Source: a virus (lineage: Duplodnaviria > Heunggongvirae > Uroviricota > Caudoviricetes). Taken from it: a stretch of 18,204 bases of DNA. Position 1 is the first letter of the stretch, and every line of letters begins with the position of its first letter. Below, piece by piece: positions 511-18,204 of the stretch. The DNA lies in IMG/VR virus record IMGVR_UViG_2547132272_000012, one strand, 5' to 3'. The position numbers and the translations under genes were made by a program. The notes below the pieces were generated by a model. The model saw only the letters and a program-made list of their open reading frames with translations. It was not told the origin of the DNA and made no database searches.

Positions 511-511
511 G

Positions 512-2311: not shown

Positions 2312-2313
2312 GA

Positions 2314-3486: not shown

Positions 3487-3497
3487 CATCTCCTCCC

Positions 3498-3713
3498 TTA
3501 ATCCCACAGGCTGTATGGCGACTCAGACACCTGTTGTGTGATTTCAGGCAACGCAATGCGGATCCCCGCCGGATAAACCGCGCCTTTCTCTGCCAGCCCC
3601 TGATTGGCCTCCAGCACAAGAGTGAGCACGGCAGACAGATTTTCCGTGCCGTAATGCGTGGCGCAAATCGCATCAAGCACATCCCCGTCACGGGTTATCC
3701 AGATCGTCGGCAT
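3498..3713 (-). CDS. Tail protein X (P2 gpX-like)
   Basis: 71-aa product MPTIWITRDGDVLDAICATHYGTENLSAVLTLVLEANQGLAEKGAVYPAGIRIALPEI... resembles the small tail protein X family (GDTLDAIC ... ANPGLAE pattern). Confidence 0.75.
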   Translation of the reverse strand: MPTIWITRDGDVLDAICATHYGTENLSAVLTLVLEANQGLAEKGAVYPAGIRIALPEITQQVSESPYSLWD

Positions 3714-4167
3714 AATGTTTCAGCTCCAGACTCCACTTTTTGTTACGGTGCCCACCGCCAGGCAAAAAACGGTCGGTGGAATCAGAAAAACGCTCCACCA
3801 CCCACCATCCCAGCACATCACCTTCTCCGCTGACCAGCAGTTGCGGCTCAGCCTTATTCGCTAGGTCATACAGCGTGTTCACCGCCTCCGTCCCCGACTT
3901 CCCCAAAAAGGCGTGCGATTCCCCTTCAAGGCGAACGGTTCGCCCGTTCTTCCCGGTGTACTGCAGCAGACTCTGCTGACCGATGCGCGCCTGCTCGCTC
4001 CAGGTCCACCCCGCCTCACGGGTCAGCTGGTTATATGCCGTGGTATCCACGGAAAAGGCGAAATCCCCCAGCATCAGCATGACTCTGGCATCTGCAGCAC
4101 CACGGAGATAACTGTTGTCACGCTGAAGGCTGTCTTCAGCGAGAGCAATAACCGAACCCACACTCAC
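3688..4167 (-). CDS. Tail protein U (P2 gpU-like)
   Basis: Contains MLMLGDFAFSVDT...W.W..Q.RIGQ, resembling the gpU N-terminal signature. Start re-assigned to GTG at 4167 (GGAGGA 8 nt upstream; GTGA overlap with tape-measure stop) instead of track start 4188; the internal ATG at 4080 is an alternative. Confidence 0.7.
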   Translation of the reverse strand: MSVGSVIALAEDSLQRDNSYLRGAADARVMLMLGDFAFSVDTTAYNQLTREAGWTWSEQARIGQQSLLQYTGKNGRTVRLEGESHAFLGKSGTEAVNTLYDLANKAEPQLLVSGEGDVLGWWVVERFSDSTDRFLPGGGHRNKKWSLELKHYADDLDNP

Positions 4168-5822
4168 CAGACACTTCCTCCATCCCACAACGCATTATTA
4201 CCACTGAAGGCCGGGTTGTTTTTCGTCATACCGGCAATGGCGTCCGCAATACCCTGTTCGCTCTGTCCGGGCTGCGCAACAATGTTGAAGTTATAATTCT
4301 TCACGCTGTTGTCATTCAGCTGTGCGCCGGACTGTCCGCCCTCAACAGGAATGGCCTGCACGGCAGCCTGCCATGCTCCCGCACTGGCAAAAGGATCATC
4401 CTGTTTTCCGGCAGATCCTGCCTGCGCTGCCGGCAACGAAAAATCGAACGTTTTTTCCGGCGTGAGGTAACTGTTCACCGATTCATGAAACGCATCCGTA
4501 TCCACAATGCCCATAAAGCCCTTCGCGGCGTTATATTTTTCACGGACATTCTTTTCAAAATCCGGATTATTTTTCAGTTGCTCATCAAGCCAGGCATCCT
4601 GCCCGCTGTTCCGGGCCACTGTCCGGGCAGCGGTCATGTCACCACGCCCGACATACTCCAGAATCTGCTTCTGATCGCCCTGTTCATCCGGTAATAACCA
4701 GGCGAGTTTTTTGGCTACTGCAAAAATAATTTTTCCGACAAAAATGACGCCTTCGCCGAACTTCAGGGCCGCCGGATACAGCGTGTCCCTCAGAAAAGAC
4801 ACAACCTTTTTAATGCCTCCGCCTTTAAACCACTCTGCCAGGTCACCCGCTGTCTCTTGTATGGCGGGGGCCAGCTCTGCGCCCAGTTGTCCGGAAATTT
4901 CTGCAACCGCAGAAGAAAAAACCTGCTGCAAATCAGAAACAGCCTTGTTTCCGGCGAGTGCGCCAGCCACACCCTCTTTTGTCACCAGGTTATATTTATC
5001 CTGCTCAGCCAGCAGTTCCTGAAAACTTTTTCCAGAACGTTTGATCAGCATCAGCAGTTTACTGGCTTCACCACCAAACAATGCATCCAGCGCAAACGAT
5101 GCCTTTGATTCATCCTTCAGTGACAGCGCCCTGTCGATAATTTTTTCGAACTGTTCCTTATCACTCAGTCCGGCAAGATCGCCTTCCTCAAATCCCAGCG
5201 TTTCAAAGGCGTCAGAAAGCGAACTCTGCTTGCCATTTTGTTTATATTCCCCGGCCTTATGCAGGTATTCCTCAAACAGATCCCCGATATTATCGCCGGT
5301 CATATCGTACTGTTTTGCCAGGGCGTCCCAGTTCATGTACGTGCGGGTATCCACGCCATACGCAGTCGCTTTACCCGCTGTTTCAGCCGTCTGCGCATTC
5401 ATGGCAGCCGGAGCAATCAGCGCACCAAGTGCCGTGGTCACGGCACCGCCCCCCATCGCCAGACCGGCATTCCAGGCAAATTTACCGGTTCCGGCAAGCA
5501 GGCTTTTTCCCTTCCCCATAAAACGTCCGAGCCGATCGCGACGCTCAAGGCTCCGGTTCAGTTTTTTCTGGGCCGCATCCGCTTTCTTAATTTCAGCCGT
5601 GAGCCGGGCGTATTCATCCTCCATCGACTTAAAACGTTTCCCTGCCAGCGCCGCCCGTTTCATTTCTGCCGCCAGCTCTGCCTGCTCTTTACGCAAACGC
5701 GCAGCCTGCTGCTCCACATCCTGCAGATTTTTTCGCAGATCCGTCGCCGAACGACGCCACGAACTGTCCAGTTTGCCCCCGAACGACACGGTGGCCTTAA
5801 GATTCTGGCTTACGCTTCCCAC
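4164..5822 (-). CDS. Tail tape measure protein
   Basis: 552-aa ORF with a coiled-coil-like N-terminus (QDVEQQAARLRKEQAELAAEMKRAALAGKRF...) and Ala/Gly-rich low-complexity centre; GTG start at 5822 with GGAGG 9 nt upstream; lies between chaperone and U. Confidence 0.75.
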   Translation of the reverse strand: MGSVSQNLKATVSFGGKLDSSWRRSATDLRKNLQDVEQQAARLRKEQAELAAEMKRAALAGKRFKSMEDEYARLTAEIKKADAAQKKLNRSLERRDRLGRFMGKGKSLLAGTGKFAWNAGLAMGGGAVTTALGALIAPAAMNAQTAETAGKATAYGVDTRTYMNWDALAKQYDMTGDNIGDLFEEYLHKAGEYKQNGKQSSLSDAFETLGFEEGDLAGLSDKEQFEKIIDRALSLKDESKASFALDALFGGEASKLLMLIKRSGKSFQELLAEQDKYNLVTKEGVAGALAGNKAVSDLQQVFSSAVAEISGQLGAELAPAIQETAGDLAEWFKGGGIKKVVSFLRDTLYPAALKFGEGVIFVGKIIFAVAKKLAWLLPDEQGDQKQILEYVGRGDMTAARTVARNSGQDAWLDEQLKNNPDFEKNVREKYNAAKGFMGIVDTDAFHESVNSYLTPEKTFDFSLPAAQAGSAGKQDDPFASAGAWQAAVQAIPVEGGQSGAQLNDNSVKNYNFNIVAQPGQSEQGIADAIAGMTKNNPAFSGNNALWDGGSVW

Positions 5823-5924
5823 GTTTTACTGCCTCCACTTCATCCAGTAAAAATGCCGTAAACACACTGAACGGCATGGACAGATAATCGGAAAGAGGAA
5901 AATGCAGCCGCCGCCCGAGAAACC

Positions 5925-6224
5925 TTAACCCTCTGAAGATTTCGGTTTCGGTCGCTTCCCGGGTGGCAGCATAAAAACATTAAAGGCATCCGTCAGCTGG
6001 GCATAATCCGCTGCGGTCAGCAGCCAGATATCCTGCTCACTCAGATTACAAAGCTGCGCAATCATACGCGCCTCTTTTTCCTCCTCTGTTCCCCGGTCTT
6101 TGGTGAAGGCAATGCGATCGCGCACCAGCGGTTCGCGCATGGTGATACGTTCCAGCACAGCACCGCCCCCCAGAGTGACCGGCGTGTACAGTGTGATGGT
6201 GCGGGTTTCACCCGGAATATTCAT
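5925..6224 (-). CDS. Tail assembly chaperone (P2 gpE-like); probable frameshift-extended E+E' form
   Basis: 99-aa ORF immediately after the tube gene and its terminator; AAGGAG 6 nt upstream of ATG 6224; followed by an atypical 102-nt gap before the tape-measure gene that is open in alternative frames. Confidence 0.7.
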   Translation of the reverse strand: MNIPGETRTITLYTPVTLGGGAVLERITMREPLVRDRIAFTKDRGTEEEKEARMIAQLCNLSEQDIWLLTAADYAQLTDAFNVFMLPPGKRPKPKSSEG

Positions 6225-6236
6225 AATCTGCTCCTT

Positions 6237-6260
6237 AAAAAAAACGGCCCGCAGGCCGTT
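6237..6260 (-). terminator. Intrinsic terminator after tail tube gene
   Basis: On the minus strand: AACGGCC-TGCG-GGCCGTT stem-loop followed by T8, 17 nt after the tube stop and immediately before the chaperone RBS. Confidence 0.65.
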
Positions 6261-6276
6261 ATGCGTTAATCAGTGC

Positions 6277-6783
6277 TCAGAGACGCACTTTTGCCGACAG
6301 GCCGGCGAGAACATTCACGCCGTTGATCCGACGCTCAAAACGCTCGGTATCAATCATAATGAGTTCGATCCCCTCCAGCGTCTGACGGTAATAATTCACC
6401 GCGATTTCCACTGTCACCGCATTTTCTGACAGGCTGCTGTTTCCACGTGCATCCGGCGTCACCGTTTTCACAAAACCTTCGATTTCTTCGGTGGTCCCCA
6501 GCGCGGTGCCGTTTGCCAGATAGCCCTGATAGGCCGTGAAGCGGGAGCGGTTGCCACTGACAAATCCGAGACTGGACAGCATGTCTGTATCCAGACCATA
6601 GAATTTAATCTGGCAGGTCAGCGCCTCCATGCCGTCGTCAACCGGCGTGGGGGCATCCTGTGCCCCGGTGCGTAAATCAGTGGTGGTTATGGACAGCGTG
6701 GGGGGCGTGAACTCATGCGCTCCCTGAATACGGATCCCCTGGCGGAAAAAAGTCCAGGCCCGTAATGTGTTTTTACTGCTCAT
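6277..6783 (-). CDS. Tail tube protein (P2 gpFII-like)
   Basis: 168-aa ORF, ATGA overlap with sheath stop; size and position typical of contractile tail tube; C-terminal ...IDTERFERRINGVNVL... resembles the FII family. Confidence 0.8.
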   Translation of the reverse strand: MSSKNTLRAWTFFRQGIRIQGAHEFTPPTLSITTTDLRTGAQDAPTPVDDGMEALTCQIKFYGLDTDMLSSLGFVSGNRSRFTAYQGYLANGTALGTTEEIEGFVKTVTPDARGNSSLSENAVTVEIAVNYYRQTLEGIELIMIDTERFERRINGVNVLAGLSAKVRL

Positions 6784-8240
6784 GTTGCCGTCATCTCCTT
6801 AATGCCGTATTCGTTGTTGACGCTCACCCGCATGCTGATAAGTTCAGTCGGCGATTTGGGACCGAAGTCATAGTTGATGTACAGTTCACCGGCTGCCAGC
6901 GTTTCGGCGGTATTCAGTTCCGGATCCAGCCATGCCCGCCCCCCGAAGATGGCACCTTCTGCCACCAGACGGCGCATATACGCATTAATGGTGCCAATAA
7001 TGTCGTCCGCATTCTGGCGATCGAGCGGGCGGTCAACATACGCCAGCATCGCCTCCTGGATACTGTCTTCAATCACATCCGCAGTACGGCGGACGGACTC
7101 GAAATGCCACTGAGGATGGGACGAGCACAGCCGGTTTCCCCAGTGTTTAAATCCGGCGCGGCGGATCAGGGTGGAGACATTCTGCATATTAAGCAGGTTG
7201 GCATCGCAGTTACGCTCACCGAGGATAAATTCATCCACCTGCTCAACACCGAGGATGTTGTAAACCTCCTGGTTTGATTTGCTCCACCACCACCCTTTTT
7301 CATAGTCAATACGGGCACGCAGTCCGGCAGCAAAGGCCGAATACGGGCGATACACCAGTTGCCCCTCTGCATTACTGACCTGCACACGCGGGCGCAGTAA
7401 TTCAGTCCTGGCACCGTAAGACTGGCGACGCTGCACCACATCCTGCAGTGTCGCGCCCGCAGCACAATCCACGTACGCCACTGCACGCAGTTTTCCGGCC
7501 ACCGTTTCCAGTGCCTTACCCACCGCATCGTCTTCACTGAATCCTGGTGCAATCACAATACGTGGCTGATACGTGGTGACGGATTTTGCCGATGACAGCA
7601 TGCTGATCCCCGCAAGAATGGCAGCACGCTGCTCTTCCGGCTTCGTTTTTTCTTCCACCCGGACGATCACCGACAGCGCGTTACGCTGGTCGTTAATCTC
7701 CGTCAGCGCCTGCTTCAGTGTTCCGGTGATCCCCAGACGTGAAAGCGCCGTTGTTCCCGCCATCGCCACTGGCGTGTTCAGCGGAAACGGTTCATCTTCA
7801 CCGCCACTCAGTGTGCCGGAAAACGGCGACACAATACCGTCACCGCTGCCGGTGGCACTCACCCCGGCCCCCGCCACACCATTCACCGCCGTCACAACAT
7901 CACTGACGGTGGCATTGCCTGCCCCCTCTTCACTGCATCCAAGCCAAATCAACAGGCTTCCGTTTTCCCATTTTGCTGACGTGGGAACCGCACCCGCACT
8001 TTTTTCTTTGACAGCCTGTTCAGCAATAACGGTAATGGTATTTCCGCTCCGTCCCCCCGCTTTTGCCGTAAAGGTCAGCTCGTTATCCAGCAGCGGCGTT
8101 CCCGCTGTCAGTGTCGCTGCCACAGCTCCGGCAGCCTGCGGCGCGGTTCCCACCACACCAATAATGGCTGTCTCTATTGTGGTTACTGCCACCGTGCCTG
8201 CTGTCAGCTCGATGGTTTCCACACCATGTAATTGCCCCAT
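6780..8240 (-). CDS. Tail sheath protein (P2 gpFI-like)
   Basis: Contains LIRRAGFKHWGNRLCS and AGELYINYDFGPKSP, closely resembling conserved sheath motifs. Start re-assigned to ATG 8240 (MGQLHGVETIEL...; GGAGA 6 nt upstream) rather than track start 8282. Confidence 0.85.
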   Translation of the reverse strand: MGQLHGVETIELTAGTVAVTTIETAIIGVVGTAPQAAGAVAATLTAGTPLLDNELTFTAKAGGRSGNTITVIAEQAVKEKSAGAVPTSAKWENGSLLIWLGCSEEGAGNATVSDVVTAVNGVAGAGVSATGSGDGIVSPFSGTLSGGEDEPFPLNTPVAMAGTTALSRLGITGTLKQALTEINDQRNALSVIVRVEEKTKPEEQRAAILAGISMLSSAKSVTTYQPRIVIAPGFSEDDAVGKALETVAGKLRAVAYVDCAAGATLQDVVQRRQSYGARTELLRPRVQVSNAEGQLVYRPYSAFAAGLRARIDYEKGWWWSKSNQEVYNILGVEQVDEFILGERNCDANLLNMQNVSTLIRRAGFKHWGNRLCSSHPQWHFESVRRTADVIEDSIQEAMLAYVDRPLDRQNADDIIGTINAYMRRLVAEGAIFGGRAWLDPELNTAETLAAGELYINYDFGPKSPTELISMRVSVNNEYGIKEMTAT

Positions 8241-8257
8241 TTGCATTCTCCGGACAT

Positions 8258-8278
8258 AAAAAAACCTGCCGCAGCAGG
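8258..8278 (-). terminator. Terminator-like hairpin plus T-run between spike V and sheath genes
   Basis: Minus strand CCTGC-TGCG-GCAGG followed by T7, beginning 1 nt after the V stop; short stem, so possibly an attenuator or stability element rather than an efficient terminator. Confidence 0.4.
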
Positions 8279-8899
8279 TCACATTTTCTGATTCGGTACT
8301 TTCGTGGTTCCCCCACTGTCTCCGGGATGGTCGTGTCCATTAAACGTTTCCCGGATCCGGCTCATGCTGCCGGATTTATCCGTCACCTCGCCTTTTGCAT
8401 AAAAATCACTTTTCACCACCACTTCACCTTCAACCATCGTGCGTCCGTTCACGATCAGGTCTTCTGAGATCATGACGTTTCCGTCCAGCACACCATTCCC
8501 GGTAATGGCATAGGTGCCCCCTTCCGCCAGAATAATGGTCAGTGAGTGCGTCTCCCGGTTATAGCAAATTTCCGTGCCATCTCCGTAACGGGTGATGTGC
8601 TCACTGTCGCTGCCCTGCGGAGCCGGTGCCTCACCGGTATTCCAGCCGGGAAAAACACGACCGTTATTCAGCTCCCCGGCCTCTGACAGTACCGTGACCG
8701 CATCGCCCACAGCAAACGGCTCAAAATCTGCCCGGTTTTTCCCGGCAAAACCCTGACACAATGGCAGCCAGGTGGTCACAATATCCCCCAGATCCACGCG
8801 GCATTCCGGAAAACCACCGTCCAGCCGCACCGAGTGGATCACCCCACGCCGGACCATATTTGCCAGGCGACGCTGTAAATCCCCCAGAACCTCATTCAC
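8279..8899 (-). CDS. Baseplate spike/assembly protein V (P2 gpV / Mu gp45-like)
   Basis: C-terminal motif GHDHPGDSGGTT is the gpV spike signature. Start re-assigned to GTG 8899 (GAGGGA 7 nt upstream; N-terminus then MNEVLGDLQRRLANMVRRG...). Confidence 0.8.
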   Translation of the reverse strand: MNEVLGDLQRRLANMVRRGVIHSVRLDGGFPECRVDLGDIVTTWLPLCQGFAGKNRADFEPFAVGDAVTVLSEAGELNNGRVFPGWNTGEAPAPQGSDSEHITRYGDGTEICYNRETHSLTIILAEGGTYAITGNGVLDGNVMISEDLIVNGRTMVEGEVVVKSDFYAKGEVTDKSGSMSRIRETFNGHDHPGDSGGTTKVPNQKM

Positions 8900-9461
8900 G
8901 TGGCTTTCCCTCAAAAATCAGCCGATAATCATCCACATGCTGTCGCCCGATCTCCGGTGCCACGCCCAGCCAGGCCCGCTGTAACGGCAGGTTATCCGTG
9001 GCAAAGGGATCCATACCAAACGTCACCGTCTGGTTAAATGAAATCTGCCAGACCAGATAATCATCCAGACGCGGATCGGTTTCATCTGCGTCCGCTGATA
9101 TAAAAATGGCAGGCTCCACATTTGCCAGTCCGAACGTCTGCCCGTCGAGCCAGTGCGACAACGCGGCGGCCGCCGAACGGATAAAAATATCCGGCTTTAT
9201 CGCCCTGCGTTCTTCTTTTTTTTCTTTATCCGACTCACCGGCACGGTCAACCAGTACCCACAGCGCGGCAGACAACACCACCGTCATCTGCCCGTCTGCA
9301 TTGCTTTTCGCATCCCAGCCATCCACCGCCAGAAACACCGCCGGAGTGACCAGTTGCGTGACCCGTTCCGGATAGGTGTCCGCATCATTGATCCATTTAA
9401 GTTTTTTCAGGGCATCCAGCACAGCAGCGTGCCAGGATGCCATGCATAAGGGTTCAGCCAT
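8892..9461 (-). CDS. Putative tail completion / tail terminator protein (function uncertain)
   Basis: Track ORF 8892..9557; preferred start is ATG 9461 (MAEPLCMASWHAAVLDALKK...) preceded by GAGGA. Position immediately upstream of V matches P2 R/S-type tail completion genes; no motif recognised. Confidence 0.4.
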   Translation of the reverse strand: MAEPLCMASWHAAVLDALKKLKWINDADTYPERVTQLVTPAVFLAVDGWDAKSNADGQMTVVLSAALWVLVDRAGESDKEKKEERRAIKPDIFIRSAAAALSHWLDGQTFGLANVEPAIFISADADETDPRLDDYLVWQISFNQTVTFGMDPFATDNLPLQRAWLGVAPEIGRQHVDDYRLIFEGKPRE

Positions 9462-9475
9462 TGCGTCCTCACATT

Positions 9476-10159
9476 TTATCGGGGGGCCACGGTAATGCCG
9501 TACTTCGCGCGTCGCCGGATGTCCGATTCGAACTCTTTCATAAAAATTTCCAGGCACTCCGCAAAAGCCACATCTTCAACATAATCCATCGTGCTGGCAT
9601 AAATACCAGCTTCAGCCTCCCGGACACGCCCGGTTTCAGGATTTTTGATGATGATTGTTCGTCGGTTCTCTTTGCGACTACGTATCACCAGCCCGTTTTC
9701 ATACGCGGCAGGAGATAAAAACGAACCGTTGGGTTCAAAAACGGGATCGCTGGCTTTGCGGCGACGTCGCCGGACACGGTTCTCTTTGATAAACCGCCCG
9801 GTTACCGGATCACGGAGATCATGACGCCGGACACGTTGCCCACGAATGCGTCCGCGCAAATCTTTTATCTTGATCGCATTAAGGCCAAACCAGAGACGGG
9901 CTTCATCCATAGCATTACCCCGGGTAATGCGGGTGGAAAAAAGCCGCCTGTCCAGTGTGTCCATTTTGCGGGGAGCCAGGCCGGTTTTCAGTTCCGCAAG
10001 CGCCTTCATGCGCATTTTTGATGCCGTTCGCTTCAGTGCGCGGGAATAGGCCAGACGGAACTGGTGCTGCGTTGCACCAGCCTGCGCCGCAATATCCCGC
10101 AATTCTTCGACGTCGATATCAAACAACAGATTTCGCCGGATGCGTGATGCCCGCGCCAT
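9476..10159 (-). CDS. Hypothetical basic (Arg-rich) protein at head-tail junction
   Basis: 227-aa ORF with AAGGAG 7 nt upstream of ATG 10159; very Arg/Lys-rich (RVRRRRRK, RGRIRGQRVRRHDLRD). No family recognised; maybe a virion morphogenesis or neck protein. Confidence 0.5.
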   Translation of the reverse strand: MARASRIRRNLLFDIDVEELRDIAAQAGATQHQFRLAYSRALKRTASKMRMKALAELKTGLAPRKMDTLDRRLFSTRITRGNAMDEARLWFGLNAIKIKDLRGRIRGQRVRRHDLRDPVTGRFIKENRVRRRRRKASDPVFEPNGSFLSPAAYENGLVIRSRKENRRTIIIKNPETGRVREAEAGIYASTMDYVEDVAFAECLEIFMKEFESDIRRRAKYGITVAPR

Positions 10160-10180
10160 TGCGATATCTCCTTATGAAGT

Positions 10181-10537
10181 TTATTTTTTACTCCATTCGA
10201 TGGTCGGTAATGACGTCCCCCGTCCACGCCCGAGCGTTACGCGTGTACGCCCCATTTCATCCGCACCAATATGCGTGACGCGGTAAAATTCGTGGTTCAG
10301 CTCCACTGTGCAGTTTGTGCTGAGCCCCTTAATATCCTCTGTCAGTGCGCTGAATGCCGGAGCCTGATCGTTAATTTCTCCACCACCCGGAACACGAACC
10401 GGCGCATCCGGAGATTCAAAAATCACCATAACAGGGCGACGCTCGCTGCCAATAGACAGTATCGCCGGACACTCCTCGGAAAAAAGCCGGGAAATGCGGG
10501 CATCTGCCCGCATCAGCCGTTTATGAAATCGATGCAT
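10181..10537 (-). CDS. Putative head-tail joining / head completion protein
   Basis: Track ORF 10181..10558 begins with TTG; I prefer ATG 10537 (ATGA overlap with upstream stop), giving about 118 aa. Size and position are consistent with a lambda FII-like connector; assignment is positional only. Confidence 0.4.
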   Translation of the reverse strand: MHRFHKRLMRADARISRLFSEECPAILSIGSERRPVMVIFESPDAPVRVPGGGEINDQAPAFSALTEDIKGLSTNCTVELNHEFYRVTHIGADEMGRTRVTLGRGRGTSLPTIEWSKK

Positions 10538-10866
10538 CAGTACCCCAGACGCACACAAACACAGGCATCTCCGGCTTCAGCCGATGCCCATACTGTTCCC
10601 ACCAGCGTATTACCTGATTTCGTTGCGGTCAGTGTTGCCGTATCCGCTTTGAAATACACCAGCTTGCCTTGCGTTAGCGCCTCTGCCTCTTTAGGTAAAG
10701 AGAAAACCCCCACCGTATGCAGAATGCCCACATCCCCGTCCGGAATATCAGCGTGAGCAACACCAACAAGATTATCCTGAACAACCAGATCGCCAGATGA
10801 CACCGCCTTCCCGGTCCCGTTCACCCAGTCGACGTTTTTTCCGTCCTGAACAAAATTTTTTGACAT
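10537..10866 (-). CDS. Putative head decoration protein (lambda gpD-like)
   Basis: Preferred start ATG 10866 (MSKNFVQDG...; GGAGA 6 nt upstream) rather than 10911, which abuts the terminator T-run. About 109 aa (lambda gpD is about 110 aa) with DGDVGILHTVGV resembling the DGAAVGILAV region of lambda gpD. Confidence 0.45.
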   Translation of the reverse strand: MSKNFVQDGKNVDWVNGTGKAVSSGDLVVQDNLVGVAHADIPDGDVGILHTVGVFSLPKEAEALTQGKLVYFKADTATLTATKSGNTLVGTVWASAEAGDACVCVRLGY

Positions 10867-10883
10867 TTTTTTCTCCGGTAAAT

Positions 10884-10936
10884 GCGGCGCAAAGTGCGCC
10901 GCTTCAGCCATAAAAAAAACCGCCCTGTCCGGCGGT
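10884..10936 (-). terminator. Intrinsic terminator after major capsid gene, plus a second perfect stem-loop
   Basis: Minus strand: capsid stop, then ACCGCC-GGACAG-GGCGGT hairpin (10919-10936) followed by T8 (10912-10919); then a perfect 7-bp inverted repeat GCGGCGC-ACTTT-GCGCCGC (10884-10902) before the downstream RBS. Confidence 0.65.
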
Positions 10937-10939
10937 TAT

Positions 10940-13030
10940 TTATTGTTTTTTCACTTTGACCATGCCACGCCAGTCAAGCGGTGCCACTCCGGCATCAATG
11001 CGCACCTTGAATGCTGCACCATCAACCGTAAAGCCCTGTTGCTGCTCCAGATACGGCGTATCAATACCGTCGAGGTAAGCCACTTCAATCGTGTCACGCC
11101 CCTGCGCTGCCACCAGGTAATAATCCGTCGGGCTGCTGTCATCAAGGCGGGCCTCTGACAGAACCGTGGCAAAATTCTGAATCGGGTTAATAATGCCGCT
11201 GTTCGCATCTGCACCGGGCACGCTGGCAGACTTAATCAACTGATTGGCACGCGACTCAATGGCAACAGGCGTCAACATAAAAGCAGGACGAATGTTCAGG
11301 CGGCGGTCACCCGATTTCTGGAGCAGCATGGCTTTACGCCCGGAATCCAGCCCCTCAATAGACAAATCTGCAGTCACCAGGTTGCCATGATCTGCATGGA
11401 ACAGCGGTTTGCCATCCGACATTTTCGGATTGCTGGTCAGCACGGCCCAGACCAGATCACCCACGGTAGTCCGCGCTGCCGCCCCCATTGCCATCGGAAT
11501 ACGGGTCAGCATATCCAGGTCATCATTGATGATGGTCTGGCGATCAATGCTGAACAATTCGCCATAAGTCGCCAGTGCAATCGGTTCGCCACGATCTTTC
11601 AGGGTCACATATTTATATTCAGCCCCCGGCAATACTTTTCGTAGCGTCGGGAAAGTTTCCAGCCCGACACGATGCGCGGTTTTAAAATCAGTCAGCGTTC
11701 CCTTGCGGGTCCATTTGTCAAAATTTTCGCTGGCATCATCCCAGCCCTGCAACGCAGCTTTATGAGCCACATCCATCAGGATATTGCCGAAATCGCTGCT
11801 GCTGTGAGTAAATGCCAGCCCCACCATCGCCATCGGTGCGGAATGACCGGAGATACCGATACCGCGATCAACCAGCGAAGCACGCGCCAGCTCGCGCAGT
11901 GTAAAACCGTTATAAGCATTATCTTTTTCTGCTTCGGCATATCCGGCGCGTGCCATCACAGCCGCACGAATGGAATCGCCGACCAGATTACCGTTCCCGG
12001 CATGAATATGAACAGCGCCCGGGCCTGCACTTGGTGTCGTTCCGGCTGCCAGCGCCTGCAACAGTTTTTCACGGGCCTGTGCTTCCGTACAGGTCATGTC
12101 GTTCAGACACTCCGCTTTCAGTGCGGCATAAGACGGGAAAGAGGCAAAAACTGCGGTTACAGCCTGCACACGTTCCGCATTGGCTGCCATCAGTTGTTGC
12201 TGAACCTGCGAAGCAATTGCGCTGATATCCACATTTCCGGTTGATGGTGCCTGCTGAGCAGCGATCTGTTGCGCATTTTGCGGGGTTGCTTTCGGCTCCT
12301 GCGGCTGTCCGTTTGTCGTTTCTGCACGTGGAGCAAAAAGCGCGTTAATCTGTTCTGGCATATTATGGTAATCCTTCAGTTTATTTTGGTTCACACAGGC
12401 CGCAGCCTGTAATTCAGGTTCAAGCGTATCAGCGAAGCCTTTTTCCACGGCTTCAGCACCGTTCAGCCAGGTTTCTGCTTTCAGCATGGCTTCCAGCTCC
12501 TCCTGCCCGAGTCCGGTTTTATTCATGTAGGCTGACAGCATCAGCGCCTCGTTGCGATCCAGCCAGTCAGCATAATCACGCATATCATCGGAATCACCGG
12601 CGATCCCGCCCCACGGCTTGTGCACCATCAGCCAGGAATTTTCAGGCATATGCACTGTGGCGCCTGGCAGGCAGACAATCATGGAGGCCATGCTGGCTGC
12701 AACACCATCCACCCAGATATCCACCTTCGCTTTCAGCCGTGACAGCGTGTTAAAGATGGCAAACCCCTGCATCACATCACCGCCCGGGCTGTGGATATGC
12801 AGATCAATAGCGCTGGCCTCAAACACCCCCGCATCCTTACAGTCAGCAATAAACTGCTGCGCGGTGATGCCCCATCCGCCAATCACGTCATAGAGGTAAA
12901 TTTCCACCCGCCCGGCAGTCTGTGCACGGATTTCATACCAGCACTGACCATTAGCGGCATCCACCCCCGCAAGGCTGGCGCGGGGATTAATCATCGTCCC
13001 GCGAAGACGCGGGTTTATCATTTGCTGCAT
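10940..13030 (-). CDS. Fused prohead protease (ClpP/S49-like) - scaffold - major capsid polyprotein
   Basis: 696-aa ORF. N-terminus (HIHSPGGDVMQGFAIFNTL...DIWVDGVAASMASMIVCLPG...HMPENSWLMVHKPWGG) looks like a ClpP/S49 serine protease fold; the middle is Ala/Gln-rich; the C-terminal ~300 aa is capsid-like. ATG 13030 has AAGGAG 9 nt upstream and overlaps the portal 3' end by 44 nt. Confidence 0.8.
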   Translation of the reverse strand: MQQMINPRLRGTMINPRASLAGVDAANGQCWYEIRAQTAGRVEIYLYDVIGGWGITAQQFIADCKDAGVFEASAIDLHIHSPGGDVMQGFAIFNTLSRLKAKVDIWVDGVAASMASMIVCLPGATVHMPENSWLMVHKPWGGIAGDSDDMRDYADWLDRNEALMLSAYMNKTGLGQEELEAMLKAETWLNGAEAVEKGFADTLEPELQAAACVNQNKLKDYHNMPEQINALFAPRAETTNGQPQEPKATPQNAQQIAAQQAPSTGNVDISAIASQVQQQLMAANAERVQAVTAVFASFPSYAALKAECLNDMTCTEAQAREKLLQALAAGTTPSAGPGAVHIHAGNGNLVGDSIRAAVMARAGYAEAEKDNAYNGFTLRELARASLVDRGIGISGHSAPMAMVGLAFTHSSSDFGNILMDVAHKAALQGWDDASENFDKWTRKGTLTDFKTAHRVGLETFPTLRKVLPGAEYKYVTLKDRGEPIALATYGELFSIDRQTIINDDLDMLTRIPMAMGAAARTTVGDLVWAVLTSNPKMSDGKPLFHADHGNLVTADLSIEGLDSGRKAMLLQKSGDRRLNIRPAFMLTPVAIESRANQLIKSASVPGADANSGIINPIQNFATVLSEARLDDSSPTDYYLVAAQGRDTIEVAYLDGIDTPYLEQQQGFTVDGAAFKVRIDAGVAPLDWRGMVKVKKQ

Positions 13031-14498
13031 CAGGGATCACTCCTTTATCGTTAGCGGCGTCAGAATCGAACACCAGCCCGTTTTCCCGGTTAAATTCAGT
13101 TTCACGCAGTCGCTGACGTTTGACCTCCTGCGGTGACTGCCCACGGGCACGTATCCACTCGGCCTCCGTCCCGGCACCACCGCGAAGAATGGCCCGCCAT
13201 GCTGCAGCCTCCTTCACCGGATCAATCCACGGCATCACCGGGCCAAGATAAGTGGCATTGAAAAGCGTGGACATATCCACATCAGGAGGAATTTCAAGAA
13301 AAGGTATCGCCTGCTCCAGCCATGCCCGGTACACCGGGCGGCTGTACTGACCGACAAACCACTGCTGTAAAACCCCGTAGCCTTCGTAACCTTCCACCAG
13401 CTCCTGACGCTGCGAACTGTAGGAGCCGTTATAGTCACGGGCAATACTGGAATAACTGCCACGGGTTCCGGCAGCCACAGCACGCAACTGCCCGTTCCGG
13501 AATTCATAAAGATGAACATTCGGACGATTCGACTCCACCATCCCCAGATCTTCACCGGGGGCCAGTTCGTCAAAAATCATGCCCGGCGAAATATCAAAGT
13601 ACCGGGGTTTTTGTTCTGTGGGTGTCCAGTCGTTATCCGTCGGAAAGCTGGCGGCATCACCACGCTTAATGTAGAAACCCAGCGCGGCAGCAATACGGGC
13701 AGCCACACGCTCTGATTCTTCATAATCTTTCAGATCAGCAATCCGGCGAATCACACCATGTAACAGGCTGACACCTCTCACCTGATGAAGCCGTTTCCGC
13801 ATCGCCAGATGAAGCATGTTGTCTGCGTGAACAGTTTTGAGATCGGCGCTGAATCCACGCATATTTGCAGGATGGTATTTATAAACCCGATACCCTACAG
13901 GCCGCCCCCAGTTGTTAAGAATAATGCCCTGGCGGACTTGCTGACCCGCGTTCGTGTTCAGACTGACCGGAACAAAATCTGCTTCGAGAAGTTCCAGTGA
14001 TAATGGCACCACAGTGGAATGATTCAGACCGGCGACAGGACCACGCACCAGTTGTACGAACATCTCGCCATCACGCAAAGCAGATCGCAATGCCATCCGT
14101 TCGGCCTCCGGGCGGGTGAACATCCCCGTGACCTCAGGGCGAACAGACCATTCAGACCACAATGCCGAGATCTGCTCTGCCAGCGATTCATGCAGGGTGC
14201 CATCGCTTCTCAGTGGTTGTGGTTCGACCTGGATCCCCTGCGCACCAATAACCCGCTCTTCCAGCTTATCCAGCAGACCAATCACGATATCGTGATCTTC
14301 ATCCAGCGCCCTGGCCTGCTCCCTTAACGAGGTACCGGCAGAAAAAACCGCTGTATCGGCAGAACGGCTCTCGCGCCGCGCCTTATTCAGGCGTGAAGGC
14401 TGCGCCGCCTCATAAGCTCTCAGCAGTATTTTGTTTCTGGCGCGCGAAACTGCCCACCCTGGCGCAATTGCGCCAAGTGCTTTATCAAAAAAACCCAT
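12987..14498 (-). CDS. Portal protein (lambda gpB family)
   Basis: 503-aa ORF directly after gpW-like and terL; ATG 14498 with GAGG 7 nt upstream; size and order match the lambda A-W-B arrangement. Confidence 0.8.
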   Translation of the reverse strand: MGFFDKALGAIAPGWAVSRARNKILLRAYEAAQPSRLNKARRESRSADTAVFSAGTSLREQARALDEDHDIVIGLLDKLEERVIGAQGIQVEPQPLRSDGTLHESLAEQISALWSEWSVRPEVTGMFTRPEAERMALRSALRDGEMFVQLVRGPVAGLNHSTVVPLSLELLEADFVPVSLNTNAGQQVRQGIILNNWGRPVGYRVYKYHPANMRGFSADLKTVHADNMLHLAMRKRLHQVRGVSLLHGVIRRIADLKDYEESERVAARIAAALGFYIKRGDAASFPTDNDWTPTEQKPRYFDISPGMIFDELAPGEDLGMVESNRPNVHLYEFRNGQLRAVAAGTRGSYSSIARDYNGSYSSQRQELVEGYEGYGVLQQWFVGQYSRPVYRAWLEQAIPFLEIPPDVDMSTLFNATYLGPVMPWIDPVKEAAAWRAILRGGAGTEAEWIRARGQSPQEVKRQRLRETEFNRENGLVFDSDAANDKGVIPDAANDKPASSRDDD

Positions 14499-14506
14499 AA
14501 AAAACC

Positions 14507-14731
14507 TCAGGAGAAACGGGCGAGTTTGTACGGTTTCCTTGTGGGCTGGCAGGCCGCCGCCCAGCGTTTTTCCCAGTATTCAAGCTCCCTGCGTAATGCA
14601 ACAGGATCATGGTTGGTGATCGCCCTGCCATTCACCCCGGTAAAAGACACACTTTTACCATCCAGGGAATCCCTGTATGCCTGTCGCACGATAACCAGCA
14701 TCTGGAAAATCTCATCTTTTTTCACAACCAT
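14507..14731 (-). CDS. Head-tail joining protein (lambda gpW-like)
   Basis: 74-aa ORF between terL and portal, exactly where lambda W sits; central DGKSVSFTGVNGRAIT resembles the lambda W core. Start ambiguous: ATG 14731 overlaps terL by 10 nt with zero-spacer GGAGG; ATG 14701 is the alternative. Confidence 0.5.
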   Translation of the reverse strand: MVVKKDEIFQMLVIVRQAYRDSLDGKSVSFTGVNGRAITNHDPVALRRELEYWEKRWAAACQPTRKPYKLARFS

Positions 14732-16839
14732 CCTCCGTTTCGGGGTAGTGATAACCAGTTTCCGGATAACGCTTCCGGCGACGCTGCTTTTTGCCGCTCA
14801 TCTCTTCCGACAACGTTTTTCTTGTCCACTGTGTCGGAAGAACGTCTGTCTGCCGAAGTCCCCGCGTCAGCATCCTGCCCTCTTGCCCACTGGGGAGGGT
14901 TGCTCCAGTCACGGATTTTTTCATAGCCACGCAGAATGGCGACGGCATGGGCATAGCAAAAAAGGTCAAACGCTTCGTTATTCCCTTTTCCCGGCTTGCG
15001 CCATTTCCCGTCAGCACCACGTTCCTCATAGGTCAACTCTTCATAAAACCACTCCCCTAGCCAGTCAGGAAAATGAATGTAGCCCGGTCCGGGCATTTCA
15101 CGTTGCAGGTTATTGCTTAGTTGATCTTTCAGCAGATCTGTCTGCAGGAGATATACCGGCACCTTCCCCTGAGCATCCGCACGGCGATCGCTTCGCCCGG
15201 TATTATCCGGGTGTGTGATGGTAATAATTTTCTGGCGTTTCGTGCTGTCTCCCTTTACCAGAAAAACCCGTCGCCCCAGTCCATCCTGACGACATTTTCG
15301 CCAGAATTTATAGGCGTTATCCGTCACCCCGTCCTCACCACCACTGTCCACCGCCATTGCCAGTACAGGCATTCTGCGGGCCGGATCGGACTGGAGCGGA
15401 TACGTTTTCTCCAGTACATCGGTGACCAGCAACTGCCAGTCTTCAGGGTAAGCTCCGGGATGCACAGGTAATGCTTCGCCATTTTCATCGCAACGCAATG
15501 ACTGTCGGATGTTATAACGGTCCACCAGCCAGCGTTCGCCGTCCTCGCCATAGCCAATAATCTGCACCACAAACCGTCGGTTCTTCCCGCCCTGCACGTC
15601 CACAGCCGCAATAAGAAAACGCACTTTCGGCGGTACCAGGCGCTTACCGTAATCCTCAGCCCGCTGCATCAGAACATCTGCACTGCGCAACTCCATGGCG
15701 GAACGAGGCAAATAAGGCAATCCCCAGTCGGTGTTAATCACCGCCTTCAGTGTTTCCTCACTGCCTGTGGCTTCATATTCCTGCTCAGCAGTCAGTAGTT
15801 TGTAAACCAGTTGCGCCCAGGTCTGATAGGCTGCAGCGGGGCCTTCCATCCAGAAGCTGGCTATCCTTGAATGACGTGGCGTTCCGGTAACATTCCCTTC
15901 TCTGTCAATCTGCTCACCTTCACGCAACCAGACGCCGCGACCATTCAGTTCACGTTTCATGTCTGCGGTGATTCGGTTGCCACAATGAGGGCATAATATA
16001 TGAGCCGCTTCACTGGCTTTTACAGGATCAGGATTGTCACGATACCCCGTCATAGCCTCCATCGATGGCTGGAAATAATCACCGCAATCCGGACAAGGCC
16101 AGTACCAGCGACGACGATCGCCACGGTTATACAGAGAAAGGATCCCCGTGGTGGGCGGGGCTTCATGCGGTGACGTTCTGCGCCATTTGCTGTTTGTGAT
16201 TTCACGCCCGGGAGAACTCTCCACCAGCGTCATACCAGCTGACATAAATGTGGTGGTACGTTTTGAAGCCAGGGAGAAACCATCACCTTCGCCATCGATA
16301 TCTTCAGGAAATCGGTCGTAATCAGTCAGCGCCACACATTTAAAATCAGAGGATGACATGACATTGATGGAGGGCCAGCCGATTTTCAGAAAGCTGCCTG
16401 ACAGAAAATATTTGTCATGAACGTTGTTATCGTTGCGGCGTGGACTGAGGCGTTTTCTGACCTCCGGACTGCAACGAAATGTTCTTGCCAGGCGCTTTTT
16501 GGAGTGCTCCTGCGCCTTATCCTGCGTCATCTGCACCAGCAAAAAGTCTGACGGATCGCAAACAATGTTATAAACCACCCAGCCATCAATCAGGCCGTTA
16601 GTCTTGCCCGTACGGGCAGGGCCAACAAAAACAACCGCATCAAACTCACGGGACGACAGGCAGTTCATGGGTTCAATCACATACGGTGCAACCAGCGGAT
16701 CCCACGGAACAGAGTTGCCACCAGATGTAGGGACTCGCATAAATTTTTGTACCGCTTCGGCAACAGGCATCCTGCGCGGCGCTTTAATTAACTGGCCCGT
16801 ATCCAGTTTCAACGATCTGGCGGTCGCCTGCACAGGCAT
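14722..16839 (-). CDS. Terminase large subunit (lambda gpA family)
   Basis: 705-aa ORF with ATPase P-loop-like VGPARTGKT, an acidic block TDYDRFPEDIDGEGDG resembling lambda YDELAAFDDDIEQEG, and a Cys/His cluster WPCPDCG...CPHCG; ATGA overlap with terS. Confidence 0.9.
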   Translation of the reverse strand: MPVQATARSLKLDTGQLIKAPRRMPVAEAVQKFMRVPTSGGNSVPWDPLVAPYVIEPMNCLSSREFDAVVFVGPARTGKTNGLIDGWVVYNIVCDPSDFLLVQMTQDKAQEHSKKRLARTFRCSPEVRKRLSPRRNDNNVHDKYFLSGSFLKIGWPSINVMSSSDFKCVALTDYDRFPEDIDGEGDGFSLASKRTTTFMSAGMTLVESSPGREITNSKWRRTSPHEAPPTTGILSLYNRGDRRRWYWPCPDCGDYFQPSMEAMTGYRDNPDPVKASEAAHILCPHCGNRITADMKRELNGRGVWLREGEQIDREGNVTGTPRHSRIASFWMEGPAAAYQTWAQLVYKLLTAEQEYEATGSEETLKAVINTDWGLPYLPRSAMELRSADVLMQRAEDYGKRLVPPKVRFLIAAVDVQGGKNRRFVVQIIGYGEDGERWLVDRYNIRQSLRCDENGEALPVHPGAYPEDWQLLVTDVLEKTYPLQSDPARRMPVLAMAVDSGGEDGVTDNAYKFWRKCRQDGLGRRVFLVKGDSTKRQKIITITHPDNTGRSDRRADAQGKVPVYLLQTDLLKDQLSNNLQREMPGPGYIHFPDWLGEWFYEELTYEERGADGKWRKPGKGNNEAFDLFCYAHAVAILRGYEKIRDWSNPPQWARGQDADAGTSADRRSSDTVDKKNVVGRDERQKAASPEALSGNWLSLPRNGGWL

Positions 16840-17339
16840 TATTCGTCCTCCTGATTTTCCTCCTCTGTATCTTCCTGTTTGCTGTCATCTGCCACCCGCC
16901 GCGCAATTTCGTCACGCAAATCATCAATAATGCTTTGCACCCGCATGACAGCCGAAGGCTCGAGAGCGCAATCGCGTTCAAGAATATCGGGGAGAGTTTC
17001 CAGAACCTGCACCATAGCCTTTGCCATTTCAGCAAATTCACGGGCGACATCAGACGCAGGGATCAGTTCTCCGACCTCCTGTTCAAATTTCAGACGTTCC
17101 CGTTCTGACTGATACCAGGCTTTTCGGTCATGGGGATCCATTTCCCCTTCAGCGACAGGCGGTGGCAACTTCATTAGCTCTGCCAGAATATCAGTAAGTT
17201 TATACAGCTTGAGGTTACTCTCATGCCCACCCGCTGTTCGGACATTTTTGATTCTTGATGCGACAGTCTGTCGGTGCACACCCGACAGCGCAGCTAACTG
17301 GCTGACATTAAGAACAAGGTGTTTCAATTCCTTATCCAC
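16839..17339 (-). CDS. Terminase small subunit (Nu1-like, N-terminal HTH)
   Basis: 166-aa ORF directly upstream of and overlapping terL; N-terminal helix-turn-helix-like VSQLAALSGVHRQTVASRI and acidic C-terminus; GTG start 17339 with GGAGG 5 nt upstream. Confidence 0.7.
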   Translation of the reverse strand: MDKELKHLVLNVSQLAALSGVHRQTVASRIKNVRTAGGHESNLKLYKLTDILAELMKLPPPVAEGEMDPHDRKAWYQSERERLKFEQEVGELIPASDVAREFAEMAKAMVQVLETLPDILERDCALEPSAVMRVQSIIDDLRDEIARRVADDSKQEDTEEENQEDE

Positions 17340-17350
17340 TTACCCCTCCA

Positions 17351-17433
17351 GTGATGAACAAAAAACAAACATTTTCGACACCAGCTATTTTTTAACCTTT
17401 CATTATCAATAAATTACAGTGGTGGTGATGAAC
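17351..17433 (-). promoter_or_regulatory. cosB-like element: two GTGATGAAC direct repeats flanking an IHF-consensus site
   Basis: GTGATGAAC occurs at 17351-17359 and 17425-17433; between them, TATCAATAAATTA (17404-17416) matches the IHF consensus WATCAANNNNTTR. The layout resembles lambda cosB just upstream of Nu1. Confidence 0.4.
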
Positions 17434-17591
17434 GATGAAAATGCAAAAATTTGGCGATTTCTGCGCATCCGTATCCCCTCGGTGTTCTAAATTCCAGGAA
17501 GGACCCGTGAAAATGGGAGCAATTATCATTTGCATACACTCCAACACCTACATTATCGCAGCCCCTCGCTGAAGAGCTGCTGTAATGCCTG

Positions 17592-17990
17592 TTACTCACG
17601 AATCAGGCGAGCACTCTTACCATTCATTTCAATACGCGAATACTGCGGTTTACCATCAATGATGTCTGTCATCACGAACATCTCACCCGGCTGCAGTTCA
17701 ACTACTGCGCCTTCCGGCAATTCCATGCAGGCAAATACCGGACAGCCCGGATAACGACCATCTTCTGTTGCTTCCAGCATTGACTCACCAAACCACTCCG
17801 TCATGGCGCGACCATCAGCTGCTTTGTAGTGGATCAAGTACTGGTTTTCACTACCTGCATACTGAGCACGCCCCCTCACTTCCCCCCATTCATCACTGAT
17901 ACGTACCTCCACCAGTTGTGACAACTCAAACTTAAACGGAACAGCAGCGGTACCAATTACAATCGGTTTGCTTTCTGTTTTTTTCATCAT
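17592..17990 (-). CDS. Hypothetical protein (unknown function) upstream of terminase
   Basis: 132-aa ORF MMKKTESKPIVIGTAAVPFKFELSQLVEVRISDEWGEVRGRAQYAGSENQYLIHYKAADGRAMTEWFGESML...; AGGAG 3-6 nt before tandem ATGs; no transmembrane segment or signal peptide evident; no family confidently recognised. Confidence 0.55.
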   Translation of the reverse strand: MMKKTESKPIVIGTAAVPFKFELSQLVEVRISDEWGEVRGRAQYAGSENQYLIHYKAADGRAMTEWFGESMLEATEDGRYPGCPVFACMELPEGAVVELQPGEMFVMTDIIDGKPQYSRIEMNGKSARLIRE

Positions 17991-18204
17991 CGTCTCCTGA
18001 TATCAAAGCCCGTCGCCGCAGCGGGCACTGATCAACATTTGAGTATTCGCGGCGACAGAAAGAATTTATTTTATTGAGTAGCCACAAACACAGAATTTCA
18101 TGCTTTCCGGACGCTGGCGCCCCCCTTCATTTTTCAGCAAAATATTCTGCTCTTACAGGCGATCAGTTCTGCAGACACTGCCGGACACCGTCGACAATTT
18201 CACA

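Follow-up and report, generated by a model that had tools for sequence, protein, structure and literature searches.

Can one reading frame supply the protease, the scaffold and the shell of a phage head, and if so, what would set the ratio of protease to capsid protein? The question is raised by a 696-aa open reading frame (ORF) in a stretch of viral DNA of 18,204 nt (IMG/VR record IMGVR_UViG_2547132272_000012), here called the window. The ORF is very probably the gene by which a temperate E. coli phage of the Gifsy-2 type builds its head; its product combines a protease, a probable scaffold-linker and an HK97-fold capsid protein and would mature itself. The reading as a fusion is correct, but it is already known and ordinary.

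The reading frame and its domains

The gene and its neighbours are these:

10940..13030, minus strand: fusion gene for a ClpP-like prohead protease, a scaffold-like linker and the major capsid protein; 696 aa, 75.0 kDa, complete
13040..13045, minus strand: Shine-Dalgarno (SD) sequence AAGGAG of the fusion gene, 9 nt 5' of the Met1 ATG (13030..13028), dG -8.2
12987..13030, minus strand: overlap of 44 nt between the portal gene 3' end and the fusion gene 5' end
10918..10937, minus strand: terminator-like hairpin and T-run, directly past the fusion gene stop codon
10537..10866, minus strand: head decoration (cement) protein gene, 109 aa (PF09956, 4e-27; phrog_122)

The integrity of the ORF is established. 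It begins with an ATG and runs uninterrupted for 696 aa, as the original prediction had it. The predicted 44-nt overlap with the portal ORF is real, because Met1 has AAGGAG 9 nt upstream; the upstream ORF (12987..14498) encodes a lambda-family portal by Pfam (PF05136, 2e-89). The overlapping layout is also annotated in Gifsy-2, F10 and a Stx2a phage. At the other end, a comparison with 16 relatives shows a hairpin and T-run at the same position, with other stem sequences, in most of them, Gifsy-2, the Stx2a phage and F10 among these; an Rfam scan of the window found no RNA family. The decoration gene starts at Met16 (GGAG-N6), and its product, 42% identical to that of the gene directly after the Gifsy-2 capsid gene, is a functional partner of the capsid protein. 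The gene context, with a PF05136 portal upstream and a PF09956 decoration gene downstream, is of the Gifsy-2 type and is established.

Within the chain, the following parts can be told apart:

12335..12943, minus strand: ClpP-fold protease domain with a conserved C-terminal extension, aa 30-232
12694..12692, minus strand: catalytic Ser113
12622..12620, minus strand: catalytic His137
12475..12473, minus strand: catalytic Glu186, at the position of ClpP Asp171
12233..12328, minus strand: disordered Ala/Gln/Pro-rich linker, aa 235-266, pLDDT <50
12044..12226, minus strand: three-helix module, aa 269-329, candidate scaffolding (delta-domain-like) element, confidently modelled
11993..12031, minus strand: second disordered segment, aa 334-346, SAGPGAVHIHAGN, pLDDT <50, between two confident domains
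10943..11986, minus strand: HK97-fold major capsid domain, aa 349-696 (Pfam core aa 385-693)

A domain search, suggested with the original prediction, delimits both ends: Pfam CLP_protease matches aa 73-202 (1.3e-28) and Phage_capsid_4 matches aa 385-693 (1.7e-51). The AF2 model of the fusion protein, built from a diverse alignment of 91 sequences, has a mean pLDDT of 86.4 and two disordered joints, and a fold search with it recovered both the ClpP fold and the HK97 fold. An earlier AF2 run on 28 close homologues (mean pLDDT 43) was discarded and kept out of the fold search. The three-part fold architecture is established. By sequence family and by fold, the N-terminal domain is a peptidase of family S14 (ClpP); it gave no match to the Peptidase_S49 family (lambda gpC/SppA), so that of the ‘ClpP/S49-like’ domain first proposed, the ClpP part stands and the S49 part falls. 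The C-terminal domain is a capsid domain by both sequence family and HK97 fold, as was anticipated. A PDB sequence search with the capsid part found no solved member of the exact family, only Mu GpT-type capsids.

The middle is rich in Ala and Gln, again as claimed: 21.8% Ala and 9.5% Gln at aa 206-384, and 22.5% and 16.9%, respectively, at aa 230-300. The linker at aa 235-266 is the least conserved part (conservation 0.25-0.45), and its length differs among relatives through in-frame indels. It is followed by the helices of the three-helix module (269-294, 299-310 and 316-329; pLDDT 84-97 in the AF2 model). A second fusion family, NF045541/phrog_4523, shares the helix module and the capsid domain, from about aa 239-242 on. 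By analogy, the disordered stretch and the three-helix module together most likely serve as an internal scaffold, in the manner of the HK97 delta domain.

Could the single frame be an artefact, or the protease a relic? A sequencing or assembly frameshift might have fused separate protease, scaffold and capsid genes, and some relatives are indeed split (Citrobacter murliniae L008 near aa 368-380, Vibrio sp. C7 L177 near aa 207, P0127 and phage PAN70). Across the break in these copies, however, homology resumes in another frame, so the split copies are the broken ones. A check for such an artefact left the ORF whole: a single frame is retained in about 165 related loci, namely in 97/97 of a first set and throughout a second set apart from contig-end or frameshifted copies, rare exceptions that are all of these two kinds. 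The frame also survives a linker with many in-frame indels, and it is seen in complete RefSeq genomes and isolated phages. A frameshift artefact has practically no chance of being the explanation and is effectively refuted. Slightly less remote, yet still very improbable, is the view that the N-terminal domain has lost its activity and persists, as a dead ClpP relic, for its scaffold mass only, any maturation cleavage being left to a host or another phage protease. The exchange of the ClpP catalytic Asp for Glu would fit a relic, and the module can be explained without any other head protease gene. But the lack of any other protease gene in the head module also speaks against it, and Ser113 and His137 are near-invariant (131/133 and 129/133 wider-family representatives) though the family is only 33-56% identical. 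Position 186 holds Glu in 109 of the 133 relatives and Asp in another 16, i.e. an acidic residue in 125/133. Near-invariant Ser and His with an acidic residue are the pattern of an active enzyme. The protein also passes the NCBIfam equivalog-domain model for ClpP-related head maturation proteases (193 bits versus a cutoff of 120). The catalytic Ser, His and acid are intact, and the active site of what is read here as a working protease is plausibly a Ser-His-Glu triad.

Family and named systems

How unusual is the fusion? The original prediction implied that it is out of the ordinary, a view that does not survive comparison: the finding is ordinary because the gene belongs to a large named family, known first from Salmonella phage Gifsy-2. 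Family membership is established. NCBIfam NF045540 (scaf_prot_MCP1) is matched at 936.6 bits versus a cutoff of 475, with aa 42-694 on model positions 2-651 of 652, and phrog_133 is matched end to end (6e-290); the protein differs in nothing of substance from this family and is an ordinary member. RefSeq genes of E. coli prophages, 98.6% identical, bear the name of a ClpP-like prohead protease/major capsid protein fusion. At E<=1e-30 there are 3,936 matches among the representatives of a library clustered at 50% identity; of the best 150 library matches, 133 are at least 600 aa long. Members of NF045540 are found in phages or prophages of Citrobacter, Hafnia, Klebsiella, Aeromonas and Rhodobacter, in Stx2a phages, and in Pseudomonas (F10, MD8, JBD68 and the LES prophages). 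When unfused relatives were sought in viral and metagenome contigs, only fused, truncated or frameshifted copies were found.

The closest named system is Gifsy-2, one gene of which is described in a passage of PMC12315714 (citing Effantin 2010, Virology 402:355) as a prohead protease gene fused to that of the coat protein. Gifsy-2 capsids have T=7 symmetry and a trimeric decoration protein (PMC8814770, PMC8538268). The alignment with a known protease-capsid fusion, another of the checks proposed, was carried out with this gene: the Gifsy-2 ‘tripartite capsid gene’ likewise encodes 696 aa and is 50% identical and collinear over aa 31-692 (BLASTP). In Gifsy-2 as here, an overlapping lambda-family portal gene precedes the fusion gene, a terminator-like hairpin lies past its stop codon and a homologous decoration protein gene comes next. 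The two fusion proteins differ in that their sequences are half diverged, and the two phages differ in their tails: that of Gifsy-2 is lambda-like and non-contractile (V, G/T and H homologues), whereas that of the prophage here is contractile, with a sheath, a tube and a baseplate. In sibling E. coli prophages, a lambda-type head cassette lies directly in place of the fusion-type cassette. This swap of head cassettes, with the contractile-tail backbone left identical, is a neat case of module exchange in nature.

Protease, scaffold and capsid in one gene are a recurrent theme also in Microbacterium phages of clusters EE and EL and other actinobacteriophages, and in the Rhodobacter RcC phages (PMC7302621, PMC8601537); by their reported architecture these genes have the same three functions, in different hosts. 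Lambda (C/Nu3, D, E) has its gene order and its portal and terminase families in common with the prophage here, and its head is likewise stabilized by a decoration protein. The parts are of other families, however: the lambda protease is S49 and that here S14/ClpP-type, the lambda capsid is Phage_cap_E and that here Phage_capsid_4/Mu gpT-like, and the lambda decoration protein gpD belongs to PF02924 and that here to PF09956. Moreover, the lambda capsid protein is separate, whereas here it is fused. In HK97, unlike here, protease (gp4) and capsid protein (gp5) are encoded by separate genes; the HK97 protease belongs to a different, herpesvirus-like family, and covalent crosslinks take the place of a decoration protein.

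The fusion finding itself matters little, as it confirms what the NCBI pipeline annotates anyway, and an architecture that has been in print for Gifsy-2 since 2010 and is noted repeatedly in phage genomics papers. Its practical use is as a warning: where an automated label reads ‘Clp protease’ or ‘head maturation protease’, it conceals that the ORF is the major capsid protein as well.

Head assembly

Scaffold function, self-cleavage and the position of the cut are inferred by homology, and the following route is a proposal. Copies of the chain would gather on the portal and build a procapsid together, their protease and linker parts turned to the inside. The confined proteases would then remove protease and linker, and the capsid protein would be released by the protease built into its own precursor, as the Gifsy-2 precedent implies. 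The disordered segment at aa 334-346 is, from the model, a candidate region for this maturation cleavage; the cut is probably in or near it, or may lie as far along as about aa 385. The product would be a mature capsid protein of roughly 34-38 kDa. Upon DNA packaging the shell would expand, and the decoration protein from the adjoining gene would stabilize it.

Two points stand against this route. The catalytic acid is Glu where ClpP has Asp, and the fusion forces a 1:1 ratio of protease to capsid protein, an unusual load for a procapsid. This load may be relieved by a second, nested product.

Internal starts

Does the gene contain a second start? Two sites come into question:

12485..12504, minus strand: strongest internal SD-like motif, AGGAGGAG-N9-ATG at Met182, dG -10.3; judged incidental
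12359..12376, minus strand: candidate nested start, AAGGA (12376..12372)-N10-Met224 ATG (12361..12359); conserved in the subclade

A strong internal ribosome-binding site (RBS) had been predicted. The motif does exist, as AGGAGGAG (12504..12497) before the ATG of Met182 (12487..12485) is the strongest in-frame combination of SD and ATG, but the RBS role is not upheld. The dG at this site is only +0.3 to -2.9 in Gifsy-2, the Stx2a phage, Hafnia yong2, Trabulsiella and Rosenbergiella, and F10, Aeromonas and Rhodobacter have no Met at this position. The SD is present in 5/17 lineages versus 5.8 expected from synonymous codons; it is fully explained by the amino-acid sequence, as a by-product of Gln-Glu-Glu codons, and is thus incidental. 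Met182 was rejected as a real start. A search for a start that would yield the capsid protein alone, also suggested at the outset, found no good SD ahead of any Met around the point where the capsid domain begins.

The site at Met224 has a weaker SD than Met182, but it is conserved. It was analysed in 17 dereplicated lineages of the Gifsy-2/F10/enterobacterial subclade, against a null of synonymous codons with 1000 simulations. The Met224 ATG is present in 17/17 lineages and AGGA(G) lies 9-10 nt upstream in 16/17 (Gifsy-2 keeps Met224 with GAGGAG upstream); 5.7 are expected, and 0/1000 simulations reach the observed number. The SD is therefore kept by synonymous codon choice. Six control sites fit the null, and among 11 conserved-Met columns Met224 alone has a conserved upstream SD. 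Codon 219 ends in G in 16/17 lineages while the amino acid varies; only 3/639 third positions are near-invariant, and this is the sole one of them with a varying amino acid. The geometry matches that of the gene's own start (AAGGAG-N9-ATG), and a gene caller chose Met224 in the frameshifted Vibrio copy.

A start at Met224 may, from its sequence, yield a protease-less scaffold-capsid product of 473 aa and 50.6 kDa. Are there then two products, the 75-kDa full chain and this shorter one, with the protease sub-stoichiometric in the procapsid? The prospect is a real one, rated here somewhat short of an even chance. Several points count against it: the SD in the window (AAGGA, dG -5.5) is of no more than moderate strength and lies rather far from its ATG, the 17 lineages are not fully independent, and apparently unfused homologues that begin at Met224 are frameshift or truncation artefacts. 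Also, Met224 is present in just 10/133 wider-family representatives, with no enrichment of a nearby Met, so most fusion genes manage without it; a conserved internal ATG with an RBS was found only within the Gifsy-2/F10/enterobacterial subclade. For that branch, codon usage suggests, tentatively and with slightly more doubt than belief, that the fusion gene is two nested genes whose internal RBS (xAG-GAx, 9-10 nt) sets the ratio of protease to capsid protein.

Three library proteins of 443-471 aa that start with ‘MP...’ at Met224 were considered as natural unfused scaffold-capsid genes and rejected. On their contigs, one (L177, Vibrio sp. C7) is a frameshifted fusion gene, one (L178) is open to the contig end and the third sits on a contig of 1,501 nt; the argument from unfused genes was dropped. 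No description of a nested Met224 start was found in the searchable literature, a search outside which the primary Gifsy-2 paper lies, and literature searches gave nothing usable on virion proteomics of the protease-capsid fusion family or on its nested initiation.

Nested head genes are known as the lambda C/Nu3 and Mu I/Z pairs, and the nested in-frame initiation of C/Nu3 is the model for the Met224 hypothesis. The Met224 signal is more interesting than the fusion itself. The start is directly testable in Gifsy-2 or Stx2a phages. Should ribosomes use it, it would account for the way in which a fused gene escapes one protease per capsid subunit, and the logic of the lambda and Mu nested head genes would extend to the fusion family.

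Architecture and family of the fusion gene

The fusion gene (10940..13030, minus strand) has an ATG start and runs uninterrupted for 696 aa. AAGGAG at 13045..13040, with a 9-nt spacer, precedes Met1 and makes it the likely start. Upstream, ORF 12987..14498 is a lambda-family portal gene (PF05136, 2e-89), and with this portal ORF and the AAGGAG at Met1, the 44-nt overlap described in the original prediction is real. A Pfam search finds both the proposed ClpP-like N-terminal part (Clp protease domain, aa 73-202, 1.3e-28) and the capsid-like C-terminal part (Phage_capsid_4, aa 385-693, 1.7e-51; the Mu gpT capsid match is weaker). The middle is indeed Ala/Gln-rich: Ala makes up 21.8% and Gln 9.5% of aa 206-384, and of aa 230-300 they make up 22.5% and 16.9%, respectively. 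The match to PHROG 133 runs from end to end (6e-290), and NCBIfam NF045540, named 'ClpP-like prohead protease/major capsid protein fusion protein', scores 936.6 bits over aa 42-694 against a curated cutoff of 475 bits. The AlphaFold model (diverse alignment of 91 sequences, mean pLDDT 86.4) has five pieces:

aa ~30-232, protease domain and C-terminal extension, confident
aa 235-266, Ala/Gln/Pro segment, disordered
aa 269-329, three-helix module, confident
aa 334-346, second disordered segment, SAGPGAVHIHAGN
aa 349-696, C-terminal domain, confident

Ser113 and His137 do not vary within the close family; among representatives only 33-56% identical they are present in 131/133 and 129/133, respectively. 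Glu186 (window 12473..12475) occupies the position of ClpP Asp171; 109 of the 133 representatives have Glu there and 16 have Asp. Because Glu is found at the acid position throughout the family, the sequences suggest that these head proteases use a Ser-His-Glu triad.

Could the single frame be a sequencing artefact? A check for frameshifts against relatives was negative, and the uninterrupted protease-linker-capsid frame is borne out. In 97/97 loci of a first set there is a single open frame, 550 codons or longer; in a second (n=68), ORFs are short only where contig ends or a frameshift cut them. Linker indels among relatives are many, all in frame. Three copies are split:

Citrobacter murliniae CP163158 (L008), about 4103-4140, frameshift near aa 368-380
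Vibrio sp. C7 BBMQ01000056 (L177), about 2450-2460, frameshift near aa 207
homologue P0127, frameshift near aa 385

In each, homology runs on past the break in another frame, so these are damaged fusion genes and not ancestral separate genes. Such frameshifted homologues yield split calls labelled 'Clp protease', which could pass for naturally unfused genes.

The analysis confirms the observation and supports its interpretation, but such a fusion has been described before and already carries a family name. RefSeq E. coli prophages with DNA identity up to 98.6% bear the NCBIfam fusion-protein name, and an IMG/VR contig, L022 (IMGVR_UViG_2529292882_000006, 29,442 bp), is 100% identical across 492 aligned residues. 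The Salmonella phage Gifsy-2 gene (NC_010393, 22471..24561) likewise encodes 696 aa, with 50% identity, and is collinear over aa 31-692. Effantin et al. reportedly studied this Gifsy-2 gene, and their abstract is said to describe an N-terminus resembling ClpP, a central domain, ~200 residues long, that may act in scaffolding, and a C-terminal capsid protein. Passages in later papers citing Effantin state that the Gifsy-2 prohead protease and coat genes are fused (PMC12315714), that the capsid is T=7 (PMC8814770) and that the decoration protein is trimeric and lies at threefold axes (PMC8538268). Protease-scaffold-capsid fusions have also been reported from phages of Microbacterium, Arthrobacter, Gordonia and Rhodococcus (PMC7302621) and from the RcC phages of Rhodobacter (PMC8601537). 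The Gifsy-2-type family has many members: 2,904 proteins match at E<=1e-20 (8,000 candidates scored), and 3,936 at E<=1e-30 among representatives of 50%-identity clusters. Of the best 150 representatives, 133 have at least 600 aa, with alignments mostly from about aa 30 to 692.

Genomic context and probable head maturation

All genes in the window are on the minus strand. The head and neck genes are:

16839..17339, minus, small terminase (DUF1441)
14722..16839, minus, large terminase
14507..14731, minus, gpW-like 74-aa ORF
12987..14498, minus, portal (PF05136), followed by the fusion gene and then the decoration protein
10918..10937, minus, terminator-like hairpin and T-run, 3 nt past the fusion-gene stop and before the decoration gene
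10537..10866, minus, decoration protein (PF09956), 42% identical to the Gifsy-2 neighbour
10181..10558, minus, head-tail attachment
9476..10159, minus, neck/tail completion

A mechanical call extends the decoration ORF to 10537..10911 (minus, 124 aa); however, the family matches do not start before aa 16-21, GGAG-N6 precedes Met16 (10866) and the RefSeq homologue has 109 aa, so the start is probably 10866. A hairpin and T-run with other stem sequences is found at the same place in most of 16 relatives, including Gifsy-2, Stx2a phage and F10. The hairpin may tune the ratio of capsid-gene to downstream transcript, or may stabilise the mRNA.

The fusion gene has the protease-linker-capsid architecture, intact active-site residues and a head-module context. 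How might the head mature? The HK97 and lambda pathways are established knowledge. By analogy with these and with Gifsy-2, fusion chains would assemble on the portal with protease and linker inside, the proteases would strip all that is N-terminal to the capsid fold, and the shell would expand and bind the decoration protein. From about aa 239-242 on, the protein shares homology with another fusion family (NF045541 / phrog_4523), which fits linker and capsid acting as one assembly unit. Cleavage would most likely fall in the disordered aa 334-346, or further on but not beyond the Pfam capsid boundary (about aa 385), giving a mature capsid protein of about 34-38 kDa.

The tail module (window 1..10159) is contractile, and baseplate genes are present:

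6780..8282, minus, sheath
6277..6783, minus, tube
4164..5822, minus, probable tape measure (552 aa, in tape-measure position)

The last ORF has a strong match to phrog_3654 (function unknown) and only weak ones to tape-measure families; its RefSeq homologues are called 'hypothetical protein' or 'AAA family ATPase', the latter a doubtful label. From its gene content, the window therefore combines a Gifsy-2-type head with a contractile (myovirus-type) tail, as does Hafnia phage yong2, whereas Gifsy-2, F10 and Stx2a phage have non-contractile (siphovirus) tails. Sibling E. coli prophages (among them L020, E. coli JNEC-KY178 prophage) are 98.3% identical over window 1..10195 and 91% over 17700..18197, but block 10196..17699 is wholly exchanged for a cassette of lambda type, which encodes an S49 peptidase, a decoration protein of the gpD family, a capsid protein of the gpE family and FI. 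This is a swap of the whole head and packaging module, with its left junction between the neck and head-tail attachment genes.

Candidate internal start signals

Is a second product translated from within the gene? The strong internal RBS of the original prediction exists as a motif at Met182 (AGGAGGAG-N9-ATG, dG -10.3, the strongest in-frame SD+ATG of the gene), but it is judged incidental and rejected. It is the product of Gln-Glu-Glu codons. Among relatives compared, the SD is absent in Gifsy-2, Stx2a phage, yong2, Trabulsiella and Rosenbergiella; F10, Aeromonas and Rhodobacter lack even the Met; and SD-like pairing is found in 5/17 lineages against 5.8 expected. The in-frame scan found no good SD at any Met near the capsid-domain start. 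A different candidate is conserved in a subclade:

12359..12376, minus, Met224 candidate nested start, AAGGA-N10-ATG

Its SD is only moderate in the window, with the SD-ATG geometry of the gene's own start. The comparison covered 17 dereplicated lineages of the subclade, related to each other and including Gifsy-2, F10, Stx2a phage and yong2: all 17 have the ATG, and 16 have an AGGA(G) core 9-10 nt before it. Met224 alone of 11 conserved-Met columns pairs an invariant ATG with an upstream SD core, and its SD signal is joint top among 664 columns. When synonymous codons were redrawn, 5.7 lineages were expected to carry the SD, and 16 or more occurred in 0/1000 simulations (with the caveat that the lineages are related); at six control sites, among them SD-like hot spots that arise from Gly/Glu/Asp codons, the counts matched their nulls. 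A near-invariant third base is seen in 3/639 degenerate columns, two being conserved CTG Leu codons and the third codon 219, where G is present in 16/17 lineages with a variable amino acid (Lys, Glu, Gln or Asn). These comparisons are good evidence that the RNA sequence at the Met224 SD is under selection. On the simplest reading, translation may also begin at Met224, within the gene, and give a scaffold-capsid product of 473 aa and 50.6 kDa that lacks the protease. The signal is confined to the Gifsy-2/F10/enterobacterial subclade; in the wider family Met224 is present in 10/133 representatives, without a compensating Met nearby. That the conserved signal is functional is a tentative proposal, to which we give somewhat less than an even chance. 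This internal start signal is the sole possibly new element here.
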